From Octopus vulgaris (lineage: Eukaryota), in NCBI GenBank assembly GCA_951406725.2, contig OX597817.1, positions 120,094,001 to 120,158,000 of the forward strand: 64,000 bases of DNA. The letters are read 5' to 3'. Position 1 is the stretch's first letter. Each line of letters starts with the position of its first letter. Position numbers and translations under genes: made by a program. Of the stretch, positions 53,823 to 64,000 are shown piece after piece. The notes below the pieces were generated by a model. The model was not told the DNA's origin. It searched no databases and saw only the letters and a list, made by a program, of their open reading frames with translations.

Positions 53823-54153
53823 ATCTAATTTGAAACATCCTATGTGAACAAAAAATTATTGCTCACACTTACGGTATTTTCTGGCATACATATCAAATTT
53901 AACATACCAAAATTTGCAGACAGCAAAAAGCAGGTTAACTTAATACACCTAGATTACTTTCAAGTACCAAAAATTCCATGAAAAATGCAGCAGGATTTGG
54001 ACAAGTTGAGACAGTGCATGAAAGTTTACACTCTGCTACATTGATTTGTATGCCAGAAATACTATTTTGGCAATATGAAGCCAATGGTAATAACTTTGGA
54101 TGTGTGAATCAATTGCATAAATGTGTGTATACACACACACACACACACACTAA

Positions 54154-54613
54154 TACTCTTTTCCTCATTTACTTGTTTCAGTCATTTGACAGTGGCCATG
54201 TTTGAGCACCGCCTTTAGTTGAGCAGATCGACCCCAGGATTTATTCTTTGTAAGCCTAGTAATTATTCTATCAATCTCTTTTGCCAAACCACTAGGTTAC
54301 AGGGACATAAGCACACCATCATCAGCTGTCAAGCAATGGAGGGGGGACAGACATAGATGCACAAACATATATATATATATATATATATACGACAGGCTTC
54401 TTTCAGTTTCTGCCTACCAATAAAATTGATCTCAGGACCTCATTCTTTGAGCCAGGTACTTATTCTACCGGTCTCTTTAGATACAGGGACATAAACATGC
54501 CAACACCAGTTGCCAAACAGTGGAGGGGACAAACACAAACATTAAGACACACACACATAGATATATACATATATACATACACACACACACACACACACAT
54601 ATACATGTGCGTG

Positions 54614-54640
<27 letters not shown>
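54154..54640 (-). mobile_element. Family A SINE 3' half plus a second partial copy
   Basis: ttacttgtttcagtcatttgac...ggcttctttcagtttctgcctaccaa, then a restart at ~54425 (tacttattcta...cagggacataaaca...ggggacaaacac). Confidence 0.8.
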
Positions 54641-54646
<6 letters not shown>

Positions 54647-56134
54647 TTAATCTTAGGGAAGTTATTTCCCAGTCCACAGGAGAGAGAAGTTCAATTCAGT
54701 GGTACTAAAAGGAATTACTCACTGTATTATATACATATAAATAGATAGGTCTAAGAGACAGAATCACCCTCAAGCAACTCAATCATCATTGAATAACATT
54801 ATCCACAATATGTACATATAAGACTAAATATTAAAATTCTCAAAATTAATACCTTCAATTCTTATTACAAATCATATACTTTACATAATCTTGACTACGC
54901 GCATTTCATAACAACATATTCCTCGTTATTCCTGAATAGAATGTCTCTATACAATACCATATTAAAACAGTTATATTACCAATCTTCAGGTCTATCTTAT
55001 ATGAACTTATTTACATCGTATATTAAGACATAAACTAAAATTAAATAACTAGAAGTCGTTGGAATAATTTTACTTTAGGAAATAATGAACAGAAATGTGG
55101 AATAAAAGTAGGAAAAAGAAATGTTAGTAAAAAGAAATGTTAGTTTATCTGTATTGTAATTTTCTCTCCATGAATTAAACATGGCTACCATCAATTCTAT
55201 AAACCAACATTGAGAGCTACTTTGTAGGGTAGATAATTCTTAAAAGGTACTTTCTATTATTTATAATAATAATAAATCAGGAGAAGCCAGAAGTTAGTGC
55301 ATGATGGGAATAGTCTTTTTTTTTTCTTGTTAATTTATTTTTATGTTAACTTTGATAAATAATGAATATATAGGTTAGTATATAAGTAAACTAAATTGCT
55401 TGACATATATTTTGAAATAATTAAAAGATATTTTGAACTAAGTAAAAGACAGTAAAATTAGTAAAAATCAGTAAAATTCTAATTTTTTATTATTTTTATA
55501 ATTAGAATACAATTAATATATATTGATTATACTATTATTCTTAAAATTGACATTATTCTTAAACTTGATTTCTAAATTAAGATTAAAAGTTTAGAATAAT
55601 AATTTCTAATATTATACTATAGATTTTTATTAAGAAATATAATATCTGAAATTAGAAGTTAATGAAATACTATCTTCCATTTATATATAAATAAGTAGAT
55701 ATATTCTAGTTATACTAAATAATAAAAATATATATATATATAATTATACCTTATATGGTATAGAGACATTTTATTTCAGCAATATCGAGGAATATGTGGT
55801 CATGAAACGTGCATAGTCAAGATAATGTAAAGTATATGATTTGTAATAAGAATTTAAGGTATTTATTTTGATAATTTGGAATAGAAATTGTAGGTATTAA
55901 TGTTGATAATTTTAATATTTAGTCCTATATGTACATATTGTGGATAATATCATTCAATGATGATTGAGTTGCTTGAGGGTGACTGTCTCTTAAACCTATC
56001 TATCTATCTATTTATACATATATATATATATATATATAACGGGACGCTTTATGAAAATAAACAAAAGACGAAGGCAGGTGGAGTACAAACAAACAATTGT
56101 ATTAGTAAGGCACTCAGGAATAGAAATAAAACAA

Positions 56135-56174
56135 ATCTTTTACGTTTCGAGCCTACGCTGTTCAACAGAAAGAT
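56135..56174 (-). ncRNA. Minimal type I hammerhead ribozyme, CUGUUGA core variant
   Basis: AUCUUU-CUGUUGA-A-CAGC-GUAG-GCUC-GAAA-CG-UA-AAAGAU. Stem I 6 bp, palindromic ACGU stem III, GUA triplet. Confidence 0.8.
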
Positions 56175-56572
56175 ACACAGAAAAGAAACACGGAGAGAAA
56201 CAAGGAGAGAAAAAAAATGCGTGCAGGAGCTAACGATTGAACATGGCGGTCTGATTTCGGCCAGATGTCAGAGATCAGACGTTAGACGCAAGAGGGATAG
56301 TAGGGGAGATAACAGGGTCAAATGGCCTCGCCCCAACATAAGGGTGTGTGTGTGTATGAGAGAGTATGTTTGTGTGTATGAAAGGTCTGGATGTATGTAT
56401 GTATGATGTGATGTGTAATGTTGTATGGTGTAGTGTCGTATGGTGCAGTGTAGTGTGATGTGGGGAGGTGGGGAAAACCCATGTGGGGTGTGGGTTCGGC
56501 TGGGGGTTGGCTAGAGTGGGGGTTGTGGGGAGAGTGAAATGGGGAGAGGAGAGAGGAGATGAGGGGGAACAC

Positions 56573-56709
56573 AGACAAGTGTTGCAAAGAGTGACCAGTG
56601 GAGCAGAAATGGCGTGAGACTGGTGTGTCATTGGCAAGGCGGATGTCACGGAGGTGTTCCGCGAACCGGTCAGCCAAGCGGCGTCCCGTTTGTCCGATGT
56701 ACAGGGAAT

Positions 56710-56713
<4 letters not shown>
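56573..56713 (-). pseudogene. Partial PLE GIY-YIG endonuclease
   Basis: YIGQT-x6-R-x2-EH and SRHF motifs are present. The N-terminal GIY and C-terminal E/LN motifs are missing. Confidence 0.8.
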
Positions 56714-56742
<29 letters not shown>

Positions 56743-56745
<3 letters not shown>

Positions 56746-57573
56746 TCGTGCCATCCACCACATACAAAACGTAACATCCCATACTGCCTAGCCAGAAGAA
56801 TTTGTACTATTGTAGAAGATGCAAATATCAGGAACAAACGCCTAATAGAACTAAGAGAATTTTTGCTCAAACAAAAATACCCATCTCTACTTATAGAAAA
56901 TGGCATACAGCGGGCTATAAAAATACCTATACAACAACTTAGGACAACCCAAGGAAGAGGAAAACAAGAACAAGTCATACCATTCATAGTGACACACAAC
57001 CCATGTCACCAGAATATCTTCAACATTGCCAAAGCAAACCTACCAATCATTGCCCAAAGTAATGAATTAAAAGACATAATCAAGGATCGAGCTATGGTGC
57101 TTAGTAAAAGACAGCCTAAAAACTTGAAAACATTACTAACAAAGGCAAAATTTGACCTCAGCAACAAAGACCAAACATTCACGGTATCTAAATGCAATGA
57201 TAGCCGATGTGGCACATGCCAATTCATACATACCGGTCAATATATAAACACAAAAACCGGGAAAATATTCACAAACGCGAATATGAACTGCAAAAGCAGA
57301 AATTTAATTTACTGCATCAAATGCCCAAATTGTGAAGAAATATATGTAGGTCAGACGGGAAACGCACTATTAGAACGCTCACGTGTACACCGGCAACAGA
57401 TTAGAGACCCAGAGGTCCGTCAGATACCTTTGAGTAACCACCTAGCAACATGTGGTCGGAAAATATATATAATATTTCCATTCTACAAATTACACAGCCC
57501 AAGTGAAATCGAGAGGAAAATCAGAGAAAAGAATTTTATTGATAAATTCGAACCCAAGCTAAATAAGCAATAA
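56743..57573 (+). CDS. PLE polyprotein C-terminus: RT thumb, Cys linker, GIY-YIG endonuclease (5'-truncated, frame open)
   Basis: KSCHPPHTKRNIPYCLARRI (thumb), CNDSRCGTC linker, NCKSRNLIYCIKCPNCEEIYVGQTG...R..H...H, REKNFIDKFEPKLN*. Confidence 0.9.
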
Positions 57574-57890
57574 TAATAATACTTAGAGGTATTACTTCCA
57601 CTGCTACGACCATGACCACTAACAACAACAACAATACTAAAGGTGATCAAGACGAAGATAGCAGGAAAATTATCTTATTTTGGGTTAAAAGTTCTATTGC
57701 CACCACCATCACCACTAGCAACAATAATTAAGGTGCTGACAATGATGATGATGACAATTGAAATATAAAAATATAAAAATCTCTGACAAAGGATATTTAC
57801 AACATTTCTAAAAATAACCCAACAATTGCTGCTTCGGCCAGGGTCAAGATACAGGACTCTTGACCTGTCCAACAAAGCGTGATGCCTAAA

Positions 57891-58032
57891 CCAATCAGCT
57901 CAACCAACCAATCAGCTTAAGTAATTGAGTGATACTACACACTGATTGGTCAGAATACAGTTTGCAAAACCTAGCACTCTGGAGCCTACCCAGCTGTATT
58001 TATAGCACAGAATCACTCATCTTGCTACAGTC
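57891..58032 (+). promoter_or_regulatory. Putative Pol II promoter in the PLE pLTR
   Basis: CCAATCAGC at 57891 and 57908, reverse CTGATTGG at 57942, TATTTATA at 57997 and Inr-like CAGTC ~31 nt downstream. Confidence 0.55.
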
Positions 58033-58067
58033 AAAAATTGTGAAGCATGACTGTCAACACTACTACA

Positions 58068-58112
58068 TGAACTCGAAGATTGCAGAATTCAATGCATGAA
58101 AGTACTAGTTCA
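58068..58112 (+). ncRNA. Hammerhead-like motif, UCGAAGA core variant
   Basis: UGAAC-UCGAAGA-U-UGCA-(8 nt)-UGCA-U-GAAA-GUAC-UA-GUUCA, with palindromic stem III AGUACU. Confidence 0.65.
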
Positions 58113-58274
58113 ATCAGAATGAATATTTAACATTCTACTATTTCATTTTATTTTATTCAATTATAATATATTATCTTATAATATATCATTATAAGATTGT
58201 AAATAAAACGTGAAAATCAGACAAGGTTGGAATTCTTTTTATTAATATATTCTTCTATACACAATCACACACAC

Positions 58275-58332
<58 letters not shown>

Positions 58333-60959
58333 GATGGGCTTCTTTCAGTAGTTTGAACAGTACTAATTTAATGTTATTTCATTCTCTCGCATGCCACATG
58401 TTCTTTAACAACAATCTACCAGAGACTAATACTTGACCTGTTCTAATACTAGCTGCTATGCAGTGTACTACAGAACTGTAATGTGAAACTCTGAATAACA
58501 GCTTGTGAAGACGTTTTCAGGTTTATTAAAAAGAATATTGCTTTACCTTTGCTATTTGAATACTATTTTTCCCCACTTTGTTTTCATGTATGTGCTTACT
58601 TGTGTAAACAGTTATATATGAAGATTAAAATGTAGATAAAAACTGAGAATTAAAACTAGTGAAGAGAATTGCTTCTCAATTTCCCACTAAATTTTTAAAA
58701 GAGGAAGAAAATGAATTCTAATACACTTAAAATTTACTTCATCAACTACTTAACTGTTTAATTGGAAAAACTTACCCAAATGAACAATATCTGCAATTTT
58801 AAAATCTCCTTGTAATCAAGAATAAACTTCACAGAGTGATTATATTCTTCATATTAAATGCTTTATAAATGCCTACACATTATTATTTCAAATCAGCACA
58901 TGTGCCAGAGAAGTATATTGTGCAAATACAATGAGATAATTGTCATCTATTAGTGTTTACAAGAAGCAACATTTAATGAACCTGCAAACTAACATTAATA
59001 GTAGGAAAGGTTATAAATTTCAACATACAATATAAATACAAAAATATTCTTTATTTTCTTTGGCTCACTGTTCCTTGTTAAGTGGAACGAAAATGTGGTG
59101 AGACACTGTCAACCTATGGTGTTTATAAGAAGAAGCAAAATTGTAAACTTTCCAAACATATTTAGGGGAGTAAAGATTAGAAATTTCAATATACCATAGC
59201 AATGCAAAAATATGCTTAACAACAAAATGATTCGATTAGCTTTCATATAATTTGGTTTTCCTTTGCTCCCTTTTCCATGTGTAATGAATGTAATAATTTA
59301 AAGTTAATTTAAACTCCTCTATTAGAAAAATCAATAAGGAAAGGAGAAAAATAGAATGACAGTCTCAGAAAAATACTTCTCTTTAAAAACATTGTCATTA
59401 ATGGGTTGCAGTCATAGCAGTAGTAGCATTTATGTTCTTAAATGCCTCCTGCTAAAGTATTGTGCTTTTTTTTTTTTGTGAAGGTGACAGGAATATCATA
59501 CATAAAATGTGACTTTTATGAACAAAAAGAATTAGAGAAATTTCTTATGGGGATATAATGGAAGAAAAGGAAACTGAAATATTAGTCAAGAAAGAAATAC
59601 TCATATATTTTGTTGTTCTTTTTTCTAAAATTACAAAGGATGTTTCAGAAAAATTAACAGGGAAAATATTACTATATTAAATTATGAAGTTATATATATA
59701 TATATTTTAATGTAAGTATTCTAGAGGTTATCAATAATACAAATAGTAATTGTAATAACTTGGCCAGATATTTTAAATAAACATAGAGTGTATAAACAAG
59801 AGCAAAGTATAACAAAAGAAAAAGAACTATTAAGGACAAGATCGGATTTATAATCACTAGTTTCCTAATTTGATATTTATTGAAGATGAATAACATTCTT
59901 ACTATATATGATACTAACTTATCACAAATTACATTCCCAGAAGCTAGAGTATTTGAAGTCATATTAATGAAGGCAAGTAGAATTAAGATTTCAGTCACAG
60001 AAAAGAAATATCTGCAAATAGATAAACTTACGCCTTACTATCTAGAATTCAATACTTTAGCCACTGATTATTCTATCTTCTATCCAGAGAAATGTAATTT
60101 ATATTTAATACAACGCTAAAATAGTTATATAGTTTAAATTAAAGTCTTTTGCTGAGTTATTACTAAAAGCTTTCACTTTCTAATGTCTTGCTTTTATGAA
60201 GGGTGAAATATTTCATACTTATACAGCTTTATGAAATATACGAAATAGAATGATTGTCAACATATGCTCTAAAGATTTTAGTGAGTATATTTATTGAATG
60301 ACAGCACTAGAATAATGCATTAGTAGTACCAAAATTGAGTTTCAGTTTCAGTTGGCTTCTCCTATTTCAAAACCAGATATTACGGTATGTACTTTAAAAA
60401 TCCAAAATGATGCAAAATTAAATCATTTCTTTCAAATCCAGATCTATAAACTACTGAATAGTATTTAACACTTATGTATGTTAGATTGATGGTTAAGCTC
60501 TAAGAAATACTGCATTTATTTGTTTAAACCAAACATTTGGACTAAAAATCCATTTTTTCTGGCTTTAAGTGTGCTGCAATATTCAGGACAGATTAAACCA
60601 CTATAATACTGTTACACTTTTCAGTGACAGTCATAATACTTTCAATATTCACTGTTTCATAATAGTGTACATAAGATTGTATTGCCCAAAATTGTTGACT
60701 ATCTTACTAACATGCAGAAATGATTCTAAAGTAAATAGTAAAACCAAAAGAAGAAAGTAACAAAATGTACTTAGTTTCAATTTATATGCTACTACATAAC
60801 TCCATTTGTGTAATGTATAACACTAGAAGAACGGTTACTTCTTAAAATGTAATATTGTTTCAATAACTTGTCATAATAGGTAAACACACAAATGTGTTTC
60901 AATCATGATTATCCAGTCAATATATCATTTAATACATATATGAAATGTAATGAAAGACA

Positions 60960-61190
60960 TAGGTCTGTCATGAGCCCAAGGATTCATAAAGATGGCACTT
61001 CATCCAGTTTCTATAGTATATAAGTGACCTGTCTGTTGTAGGGATACGTTCCCAGCTATTGCTGGGACTTATTTACAGCTGAATGGATAGGTTGCAGTAT
61101 GAAACAAAGTGTTTTGCTCAAAAACACAAAATGTTGTTCAATCCAGAAATCAAAATCATTATCATTTGATTATGAGTGCAACACCCTAAG
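60960..61190 (-). mobile_element. Old SINE, family C
   Basis: cttatttacagctgaatggatag...gtgttttgctcaa...gagtgcaacaccctaa. Confidence 0.55.
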
Positions 61191-61410
61191 TGCTTTATTA
61201 CACTTTCATTCACATGCAGATGCACAATTAAAAAATTTAAATAATAACAACAACAACAACAATAATAACTCCATGTGTCACCATACTTGACAAATATCTA
61301 CATCTGTCCATCATTGCCTAGACTAAAACTCACGTGGCACTGAGTCACAGTTCAAGAAAGTTACAATCAATAAGTAAATGATTTGAAAAAGGTTACTATT
61401 ATAGAGTACT

Positions 61411-61451
<41 letters not shown>

Positions 61452-61674
61452 CATGTGCGCGCACACACACACACATGCACATATATTAGTTTCTAGCTCC
61501 CAAATCCACAGTTAAAATGCTTGGAATATTACATGAAAATATATCATTGTTTATATATATATACATATATATATATTGATAAAACGGTAAGATAACAAAA
61601 GAAAGAAAGAGACCTCAATATTATGTAAATAGAGGAAATTTATCTATACAATATGTTACATTACTCGGTAGTCA

Positions 61675-61737
61675 AGATAAAACTCTGAGTTTCAGATGCC
61701 GAAGTGGAAATCCACAACACCATCTCTTCGGTTATCT
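61675..61737 (-). ncRNA. Type I hammerhead ribozyme, CCGAAGA core variant, extended stem II
   Basis: AGAUAA-CCGAAGA-GAUG-[gugUU GUGGA uu UCCAC uucgg]-CAUC-U-GAAA-CUC-A-GAG-UU-UUAUCU. Stem I 6 bp, GUU triplet. Confidence 0.75.
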
Positions 61738-61931
61738 GGCTATTTGAAAACGTTATGAAAAAATACCATTAAAAATGAAGGGAAATTACTCTGTTATAAC
61801 TCTGCTTTGCCTGCGTACTTATACATCGCTCGCATTTTTCGTCATAAAAATTATATAAAATACATAAAAATATATAAAAATATATAAAAAATATATAAAA
61901 TCTTCTTGGGACATAACACAGAAAGCATGTT

Positions 61932-62564
61932 CTATCCGTTTTCTTTAGGGGACCAAAAACGTAACAGAAATTTAGTCACATGTGGGCATGATCCGAAAAG
62001 CTCTGTCCTTGTATTTAGACATGTGGTAGGGTCTAAGCTGCTTTTCCAGATAAGCCATCTCTCCATGTCACATAAACCGCACCTTCCGCTGCCGTTAGTG
62101 TAGGGCTTACATCTGGCCAAAATCTTCCATTGTATGTTATAATCGACACCTTTATCTCTTAAAGACCAAATATGATTGGATAATTGTGTGGCTTTTCTTT
62201 TGTTCCAGTGCCTAAAGCTCAAAGTGTGGTTATTGAACCTGGCCTTGAAATTACCCTCTGTCAGGCCCACGTATTTCTTCGTCGAAACGGTGTCTTTAGT
62301 GGTTATAGAGTTTACGGTAGCTTCATATATGATGGTCTTGGACATGCAAGCTCCATTTAGCGGGCACAATTCTTTATTCCTGCATGAACAGCTGTTTTCT
62401 TCTTGTGTTTTTTGTATGTTATGATTGATTATGTTTTTAAAATTGGTAGTTGAACTAAAACTAATTTTTAAATTGTGTCTATTGAAGAGTTTCCTATAAG
62501 AATGGTTAACTGGAAAATGTCTATCTATCAGTGCTAGGAAATATTTACCTATATTGAAGGCCAC
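61932..62564 (-). CDS. Naiad-type GIY-YIG endonuclease region within the inverted pLTR
   Basis: CSCRNKELCPLNGAC linker, IIYEA...YVGLTEGNFKARFNNH, TQLSNHIW, RCGLCDME, LNTRTELFGSCPH. Confidence 0.88.
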   Translation of the reverse strand: MAFNIGKYFLALIDRHFPVNHSYRKLFNRHNLKISFSSTTNFKNIINHNIQKTQEENSCSCRNKELCPLNGACMSKTIIYEATVNSITTKDTVSTKKYVGLTEGNFKARFNNHTLSFRHWNKRKATQLSNHIWSLRDKGVDYNIQWKILARCKPYTNGSGRCGLCDMERWLIWKSSLDPTTCLNTRTELFGSCPHVTKFLLRFWSPKENG

Positions 62565-62656
62565 CTCGGGTGAGTAAACCAGATGACCTTCCTATTTCTA
62601 TTATTCCTTTTCCTTACTGTTGGGCTGGTGATAGGTGTATATTTTATTTTTTCGCT

Positions 62657-64000
62657 AAATACACACAACTCTTACACAACAGCATTACTAATAATTATAC
62701 TAAGGCTAGGGCACAGACATATAACGAAATTAATAAAGAAGCTAGCGTCATCGCCGCTAAACTTAAATTAGATAAAAAAATAGAAAACCTCCCCCAAAAA
62801 GAGGCCTTTATTACTATTAAAGATCACAAAGAAAACTTCCTTTCCAACCCTAAATGTAGGCTTATCAACCCAGCCAAGTCAGAACTAGGGATTATTAGCA
62901 AAGAAATTTTAGATAAAATAAATACGAAAATTAAGACCGATACTAGGCTAGTGCAATGGTCCAATAGTATAGAAGTCGTAGACTGGTTTAAAGCTATTAA
63001 GAATAAGAAAAAGCGAGGTTTACACAATTCGATATTGTTGATTTTTATGCCTCTATCTCTAAAGAACTGCTAGATAAAGCCCTAATCTTCGCTAGTGACT
63101 TCATAGAAATTAGTACCAATGATAAGGATATAATCTTCCATGCTAGAAAGACATTACTTTTCAGTGAGAATGCAAAGTGGGTAAAAAACACCGACACGGA
63201 GGGCGCTTTCGATGTGAGCATGGGTTCATATGATGGGGCAGGCATCTGTGATCTAATTGGACTCTTTCTCCTAGATACCTTCGGTAAGACATTCCCTAAC
63301 GTACATTTCGCCATCTACAAAGATGATGCCCTCGCCTTAACAGCTAATACAAATGGACCAGCACAAGATCGTTTTAGGAAGGATATTATCCAGTTAATCA
63401 AACACTTCGGACTTAGTATAACTATAGACACTAACCTGACGGTTGTCAATTTCTTAGACGTTTCCTTAGATCTTAATAATAATATTTATAAGCCTTATAG
63501 GAAGCCCAATGATAGACTAAGTTATATTAATGTAGGTTCATGCCATCCCCCTATAGTATTCAAAAATTTAGTTAAAAATATTAGTAAGAGGATTTCTAGC
63601 CTCTCATCTAATAAGGACATCTTCAATAGCGTTGCCCCAGTTTATAATAAAGCTTTAAAAGATAGTGGTTTTAGCGAAAAAATAAAATATACACCTATCA
63701 CCAGCCCAACAGTAAGGAAAAGGAATAATAGAAATAGGAAGGTCATCTGGTTTACGCCCCCTTACTCACCCGAGGTGGCCTTCAATATAGGTAAATATTT
63801 CCTAGCACTGATAGATAGACATTTTCCAGTTAACCATGCTTATAGGAAACTCTTCAATAGACACAATTTAAAAATTAGTTTTAGTTCAACTACCAATTTT
63901 AAAAACATAATCAATCATAACATACAAAAAACACAAGAAGAAAACAGCTGTTCATGCAGGAATAAAGAATTGTGCCCGCTAAATGGAGCTTGCATGTCCA
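62657..64000 (+). pseudogene. PLE reverse transcriptase (Naiad-like), 5'-truncated, one frameshift at ~63008-63012
   Basis: AFITIKDHKENF..NPKCRLINPAKSELG in frame 2. Then in frame 1: QFDIVDFYASI (~63025), FDVSMGSYDGA (~63208), YKDD (63316-63327), VNFLDVSLDL, SCHPP and IWFTPPYS. Open to the window end. Confidence 0.92.

Follow-up and report, generated by a model that had tools for sequence, protein, structure and literature searches.

In a 64,000-nucleotide stretch of the Octopus vulgaris genome (assembly GCA_951406725.2, contig OX597817.1, positions 120,094,001 to 120,158,000 of the forward strand; hereafter the window), fragments of three Penelope-like elements (PLEs), termed elements A, B and C, each carry a hammerhead ribozyme motif with a core that departs from the canonical CUGANGA. 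We found that two of the substitutions are traits of lineages and not decay of single copies, namely A6U in family A and U4C in the young lineages of families B and C; C3U, also present in the window copy of B, is private. The reading that we favour, with moderate confidence, is that the variant cores are slowed but working ribozymes, likely needing a tandem partner copy and probably the protein of the element.

Three hammerhead motifs with variant cores

An earlier note on this DNA had placed a hammerhead on the sense strand of each element, 3' of a fragment of a GIY-YIG open reading frame (ORF), and all three motifs were found where it had put them. The hammerhead numbering and the NUH cleavage rule used here are the standard ones. 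Motif A (56135..56174, minus strand) is a minimal type I hammerhead with a stem I of 6 bp, the core CUGUUGA at 56168-56162 and a GUA triplet at 56143-56141; the predicted cut lies between 56141 and 56140. Motif B (58068..58112, plus strand), also of type I, has a stem I of 5 bp, the core UCGAAGA at 58073-58079, a stem II of 4 bp that opens with a U-A pair and a CUA triplet at 58105-58107, with the cut predicted after 58107. Motif C (61665..61747, minus strand) is an extended type I hammerhead with the core CCGAAGA at 61731-61725, a long irregular stem II and a GUU triplet at 61683-61681, after which (61681) the cut is predicted; its stem I is bipartite and the distal part is mismatched in the youngest sub-lineage, to which the window copy belongs. 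The description of the motifs as minimal thus held for A and B and failed for C, in which stem I comprises about 14 pairs and stem II about 11 across the superfamily. Helix III is self-complementary in each motif, as had been claimed (ACGU in A, AGUACU in B and ACUC-A-GAGU in C), with computed self-duplex energies of -3.7, -5.4 and -9.8 kcal/mol, respectively, and GAAA, the A15.1-U16.1 pair and the NUH triplet are present in the PLE type I hammerhead motifs here.

The motifs occupy the same position in the pseudo-long terminal repeat (pLTR) as the PLE hammerheads described by Cervera 2014 (PMC4209133). Motif A resembles that set in its loop-less palindromic helix III, the extra base after A9, the G10.1-C11.1 pair typical of its family and the short stem I, and B and C resemble the variants of the set with a short palindromic helix III. 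U at N17 is common in the set as a whole. In Fig. S3 of that work, C4 or U6 occurs in none of the 56 representatives, an absence that is partly by design as the descriptor fixed the core; its non-canonical cores have the U3-A8 combination or, in one case, U3 together with G8, and no cephalopod is listed there.

The motifs are real and occur beyond chance. Patterns written for them gave 1,163 to 20,158 matches in the genome, whereas the reversed versions used as controls gave 0-1 per strand. In a random sample of 60 genome stretches of 10 kb (600 kb), a relaxed hammerhead descriptor gave 11 matches, compared with 0.6 per 600 kb in five shuffles of the sample; this descriptor misses the A copy of the window, in which the 10.1 pair is broken. 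By core, four of the 11 matches were A6U, three U4C, three U3-A8 and one canonical, so that the suspicion that a strict CUGANGA search would overlook most such motifs was justified (10 of the 11 were non-canonical). Hammerhead counts based on a strict core would be far too low in such a genome, where family A and a further repeat, D, alone account for about 33,000 pattern matches. Rfam scans matched no hammerhead family at E values up to 5 in 54000-64000 and up to 10 in 61600-61800, and the matches that they did give were weak or driven by microsatellites.

Other hammerheads were seen along the way. Covariant U3-A8 motifs with UUGAUAA and UUGAAAA cores, a variant described for Schistosoma, occurred in random stretches (L243:9958, L268 and L250, the last one weak). 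Two flanks (L013 and L075) held other distinct hammerhead repeats, CCGAUGA cores and a canonical one with a long palindromic helix III among them; the single U4C motifs seen in these flanks numbered two.

A6U is a trait of family A

To count family A copies, we used a pattern that left positions 3 to 7 free. It matched 20,158 times in the genome and the canonical CUGANGA core was present in 227 of these matches only. Position 6, counted by hand among the first 100 matches listed, was U in 96, A in 2 and C in 2; in the same 100, C3 was kept in 99, U4 in 95 and G5 in 98, and N7 was U in 41, A in 25, C in 23 and G in 11. CUG cores with a base other than U at position 6 numbered 751, with C in 73, A in 19 and G in 8 among the first 100 of them listed.

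A set free of the bias of a core pattern was assembled from copies found by the 3' flank alone. It comprised 32 of 56 copies; the other 24 (pattern-selected hits, duplicates, truncated copies and the copy in the window) were left out. The ten canonical core positions were kept in 29-32 of the 32 copies and U6 in 30, compared with 13 for N7; N17 was A in 21, U in 10, C in 1 and G in none, and many columns of the flank were split by subfamily. Genome-wide, G17 was found in only 156 of the U6 copies of the family. Positions that are free in hammerheads (N7 and N17) vary and the catalytic ones hold, just as in a conserved hammerhead, except that position 6 is fixed as U. Combined with the presence of the variant in intact tandem elements, these counts establish that A6U is a family-wide trait and not copy decay, and the proposal that it is the family consensus was borne out.

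The window copy of motif A carries, in addition, a private C at position 10.1 that breaks the G10.1-C11.1 pair of stem II; in the 29 other closest copies this position is G in 28 and A in 1. An alternative register of the motif with a UUGAAGA core was rejected, as its U4 would take all four bases and its stem I would be unpaired.

One explanation would derive all three variant cores of the window from canonical family cores, through decay of single copies or as CpG artefacts; we give it next to no weight, and it is refuted for A6U and for U4C. It does hold for two changes of the window, C3U and the 10.1 change just described. It does not hold for U6, which is present in 96 among the first 100 of the 20,158 matches listed, nor for U4C, which is found in intact elements and linked to other sites of the young lineages.

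U4C marks the young lineages of families B and C

Young copies of family B have a CCGAAGA core, older copies a CUGAAGA core. The family pattern matched 1,695 times in the genome, with CCGANGA in 1,163 of the matches; among the first 100 listed, 69 had CCG, 27 CUG and 4 another triplet. When ten other CCG loci were compared with the intact unit of the family, eight showed 97-99.8% identity and two 86% and 92%, whereas nine loci selected for CUG showed 78-95%. CCG copies are thus mostly nearest to the intact unit and CUG loci more diverged, which indicates that U4C is derived in the young lineage of B. We considered CpG decay as a source of the CUG copies and rejected it: such decay would yield CCA as often as CTG, CCA was not seen among the first 100 copies listed and CUG is tied to sites of the old lineage.

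C3U has a different status. Position 3 lacked C in 22 of the 1,695 matches and UCGAAGA was found in four, which have more than one sequence background. The C3U/U4C core of motif B was therefore read correctly as a lineage trait for its U4C half, and C3U is a private mutation or decay, the outcome that the earlier note had itself named as refuting its reading. A C3U lineage in B had been hinted at by a DNA search biased against common words, which gave mainly U3 copies, and the pattern counts overturned it.

In family C, CCG cores are the more frequent (3,916 matches compared with 2,327 for CUG) and the more homogeneous, mean identity being 0.925 within CCG and 0.769 within CUG. In a tree of 63 copies built with position 4 masked, CCG copies sat within the tip of a ladder-like topology, with three changes and few columns, a result with which a single origin of CCG in the family could still be reconciled. 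CCG is also the core of an intact array. The U4C core of C is accordingly a trait of the youngest lineage, as had been supposed, and not copy decay; the older lineages of both B and C have the canonical CUGANGA core.

Two consequences of U4C for folding were examined in family C and set aside. Firstly, mean fold energies are alike in the two groups (-18.1 for CCG and -18.4 for CUG) and do not support a general weakening of the fold with U4C; the youngest sub-lineage alone is weaker. Secondly, CUUCGG in stem II might inhibit the CCGAAG core by pairing with it; this pairing is absent from the minimum fold predicted for the window copy, and the subfamilies have not retained it.

Recurrence of changes at position 4

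A fourth repeat, D, was found genome-wide (L292-L301). It has a minimal hammerhead with 13,098 matches, is like A in stem II and in the downstream sequence, and includes the three U4C matches of the random genome sample. Among the first 100 matches listed, 66 had CCG, mostly as CCGACGA, and canonical CUGA relatives exist; 26 CTG were counted against 3 CCA in the same 100, so that some decay is possible. No link to an ORF was found in the three stretches examined.

Changes at position 4 thus recur in B, C and D. This recurrence shows tolerance and does not go so far as to show that slower cutting is favoured. A stronger proposal would be that in four or more repeats, counting U4C in B, C and D and A6U in A (a sister of D), the lineages that are youngest or most abundant independently changed the CUGA U-turn, that slower, protein-gated cleavage was selected because it keeps uncut tandem RNA as a template, and that A6U is an undescribed functional natural core. 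We regard this proposal as speculative and rather doubtful. If it were true, each family would offer matched canonical and variant ribozymes with which to ask what PLE hammerheads are for.

Activity of the variant cores

Under the reading that we favour, a lineage-wide core change (A6U in A, U4C in B and C) would slow self-cleavage without abolishing it. Read-through transcription of an array would join two motifs into a double hammerhead through the palindromic helix III; unit-length RNA could then be freed by slow cleavage after GUH or CUA, and much of the RNA would be left uncut as a template for reverse transcription. Slowing is expected because, wherever rates have been measured, U4C and position-6 changes reduce them: in the variants collected by Perreault 2011 (PMC3088659), U4C has a lower activity in vitro and yet supports viroid infectivity, and the natural A6C hammerhead of phage Bcep176 cuts at less than 0.1 per min. 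A need for partners would agree with PLE hammerheads cutting weakly and as dimers (Cervera 2014, PMC4209133) and with the hammerhead of the Anolis Poseidon element PAc, for which addition of the protein is required for cleavage (Frangieh 2024, PMC11167929). Uncut RNA could still serve as a template, given that PAc inserts without cleavage. Conservation of the substitutions suggests that the motifs tolerate them and can still cut.

The earlier note had proposed covariation of the stems as a check, and covariation was shown for family C only, where it speaks for this reading. In 30 chosen copies of C, both sides changed in 14 of 28 pairs, a number equalled in none of 500 shuffles and compared with 2-7 in slid controls; the set includes related sequences, which inflates the counts, and the shuffle count is not a probability. 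Several observations weigh against the reading. Family A stems are near-invariant and offer no covariation to score, and motif B is without the usual G10.1-C11.1 pair. In the youngest C sub-lineage (the window copy and the intact array), the distal part of stem I has an energy of -5.2 kcal/mol compared with -11.6 to -16.7 kcal/mol in four older CCG copies, and the fold is no better than that of shuffles (z -1.06). The hammerhead is not the minimum-energy fold of the monomer for A or C. Conservation in young lineages says little, little time having passed. In published work, full mutagenesis of a type III hammerhead left all single CUGA mutants with low activity (Roberts 2023). PAc RNA with a dead hammerhead is reported to insert normally in vitro, and no RNA-seq reads to end at the cut site (Frangieh 2024, PMC11167929), so that activity may be dispensable.

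Some of this would fit motifs that are catalytically dead, with the fold kept for binding of the element's protein, for priming or as part of the pLTR promoter, or merely inherited while slowly eroding, cleavage being dispensable for transposition. We consider this account unlikely but far from negligible. To the low activity of CUGA mutants, the insertion of PAc RNA with mutated hammerheads and the mismatches of the youngest C lineage, which affect stem II as well as distal stem I, it can add the reported proliferation of Naiad PLEs that have no canonical hammerheads (Craig 2021, PMC8557442) and a rod-like monomer fold, predicted by modelling, in which A6U allows the core to pair with the palindrome. 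It does less well with where the changes fall. In family A the variable positions are N7 and N17, and G at 17 is avoided, as befits a site that can be cleaved and not a generic protein or DNA element; in B, C and D, position 4 is hit repeatedly, and changes are not scattered over the eleven core positions.

At the other extreme, the motifs might reach near-normal cutting rates in their natural setting, with the dimer, tertiary contacts (through the stems of C) or a protein compensating for the core, and the substitutions would then be neutral lineage markers. Compensation of core variants by tertiary contacts was argued in Perreault 2011 (PMC3088659), the long covarying stems of C could form such contacts and the U4C lineages are those most recently successful in B and C. 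However, A and B are minimal and have no obvious peripheral elements, even canonical minimal PLE hammerheads are slow (Cervera 2014, PMC4209133) and position-6 changes reduced the rate in the cases tested (PMC3088659). We judge near-normal cutting to be distinctly improbable.

The U4C known from a viroid is the very substitution of young B and C, and the phage A6C indicates that position 6 tolerates a pyrimidine at low activity, here U and not C; compared with those variants (PMC3088659), the ones described here have become fixed in lineages of retrotransposons that number 1,000 to 20,000 copies and their motifs are predicted to need dimers. U4C is already covered by CYGANGA search descriptors (PMC13481778). 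The natural panel of three tolerated cores that had been envisaged therefore reduces to two substitutions, A6U and U4C, the second of which was already known.

Literature searches gave no paper on a natural A6U hammerhead, a weak absence as they did not cover Lunse 2017, which may describe U4C or A6U in PLEs; on octopus or cephalopod PLE hammerheads they gave nothing about core variants. The 2017 work of Lunse, Weinberg and Breaker is said, by its title, to concern small PLE-associated hammerhead variants that cleave as dimers. As PLE hammerheads and U4C are already known, the importance of the finding is moderate. Its interest lies in the intact elements with variant cores that coexist with canonical-core kin of the same family, natural pairs in which cleavage rate could be tested against transposition. 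The function of PLE hammerheads has been called unclear, and it has been asked whether they are parasites of PLEs (Craig 2021, PMC8557442).

Intact relatives and classification of the elements

Intact relatives were found for each family. In A, an ORF of about 1,080 aa lies in a 4.47-kb tandem (L229-L231) with CUGUUGA motifs, present on both sides in L230. The intact unit of B is 4,271 bp long and has a 454-aa ORF1 frame that overlaps a 775-aa frame for reverse transcriptase and endonuclease (RT-EN; L182, L183), and C is represented by a 2.58-kb tandem with CCGAAGA in which the ORF has 708 aa (L214). The overlap of the frames in B contains a U-rich run, as expected of PLEs with frameshifted ORF1 and ORF2 (Craig 2021, PMC8557442).

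The intact arrays are head-to-tail, and each unit holds a single variant hammerhead, in the stretch that follows one ORF and precedes the next; in B it lies 210 nt upstream of ORF1. As in PAc (Frangieh 2024, PMC11167929), where the pLTR hammerhead lies upstream of the internal end of the element, the A, B and C copies run past the predicted cut. PAc differs in that C3 and G8 are conserved and the motif overlaps the start codon (PMC11167929), whereas the motifs here, with their altered cores, stand some 200-700 nt before the next ORF.

The families have the features of endonuclease-bearing PLEs: RT-EN ORFs (L230, L182, L214), tandem arrays that form pLTRs and, for C, an inverted 5'-truncated partner. 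As read from their intact ORFs, A and B have a Cx4CxxC linker, a CCHH-type endonuclease and a DKG motif; the 708-aa ORF of C has a CxCX5C linker, RWK and DKT and is without CCHH, its unit is shorter than 3 kb and its targets are (TA)n. Neptune elements are defined by a CX2-5CxxC linker, a CCHH with two cysteines between GIY and YIG, and DKG, and Hydra elements by a CxCX5C linker, RWK, DKT, the lack of CCHH, a length below 3 kb and (TA)n targets (Craig 2021, PMC8557442). A and B would thus be of Neptune type and C of Hydra type, labels that come from motifs and not from a reference tree; Nematis also has a zinc finger in the linker. The three elements had been called unrelated, which is a loose description: C is distant from B, the best stretch having 26% identity over 153 aa, and A and B are both Neptune-type and share 30% identity over 746 aa.

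Arrangement of the elements in the window

Elements A and B lie back to back, element C forms an inverted pair, and all are set in (TA)n tracts. Element A (56039..56711, minus strand) is the 3' part of a Neptune-type PLE, truncated at the 5' end and with an internal deletion, in which a short GIY-YIG piece is followed by the 3' untranslated region/pLTR; it consists of two pieces with 88-91% identity to the intact element at locus L230. A (TA)n tract (56713..56741) separates its truncated 5' end from that of element B (56742..58290, plus strand), a 5'-truncated young Neptune-type PLE in which the ORF ends at 57573 and which differs from the intact 4,271-bp tandem unit at three positions in 1,549 nt, C3U among them. 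Element C (61578..62664, minus strand) is a 5'-truncated Hydra-type PLE, with an endonuclease with the CxCx5C linker, a stop at 61932-61934 and 97% identity to the intact tandem unit L214. Pfam detected GIY-YIG in all three fragments and the curated cutoff was exceeded by element B alone (E 5.3e-6); the piece in element A (56561-56710) had an E value of 0.032, under the cutoff. The inverted partner of element C (62657..64000, plus strand) extends from reverse transcriptase to endonuclease with the frame split at about 63007-63073, and runs about 700 nt beyond the window; a second, identical CCGAAGA hammerhead lies in it on the opposite strand, just past the window end (L151:604-690). The three window copies are single 5'-truncated passengers, and those of A and B, each with an extra private lesion (the 10.1 pair in A, C3U in B), are probably dead.

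Two minor features lie upstream of element A. One arm of an inverted repeat at 54756-55990 holds, at 54890-55005 on the minus strand, a possible fourth hammerhead with a canonical CUGAAGA core, a spacer of about 75 nt, GAAA, a near-palindromic helix III, UA and a 3-bp stem I; its predicted fold is without a hammerhead (z -0.26), which points to an old copy or to chance. At 54298-54573, a short repeat occurs twice, the copies being 74% identical and 184 nt apart, and looks like a common repeat of the short interspersed element type.

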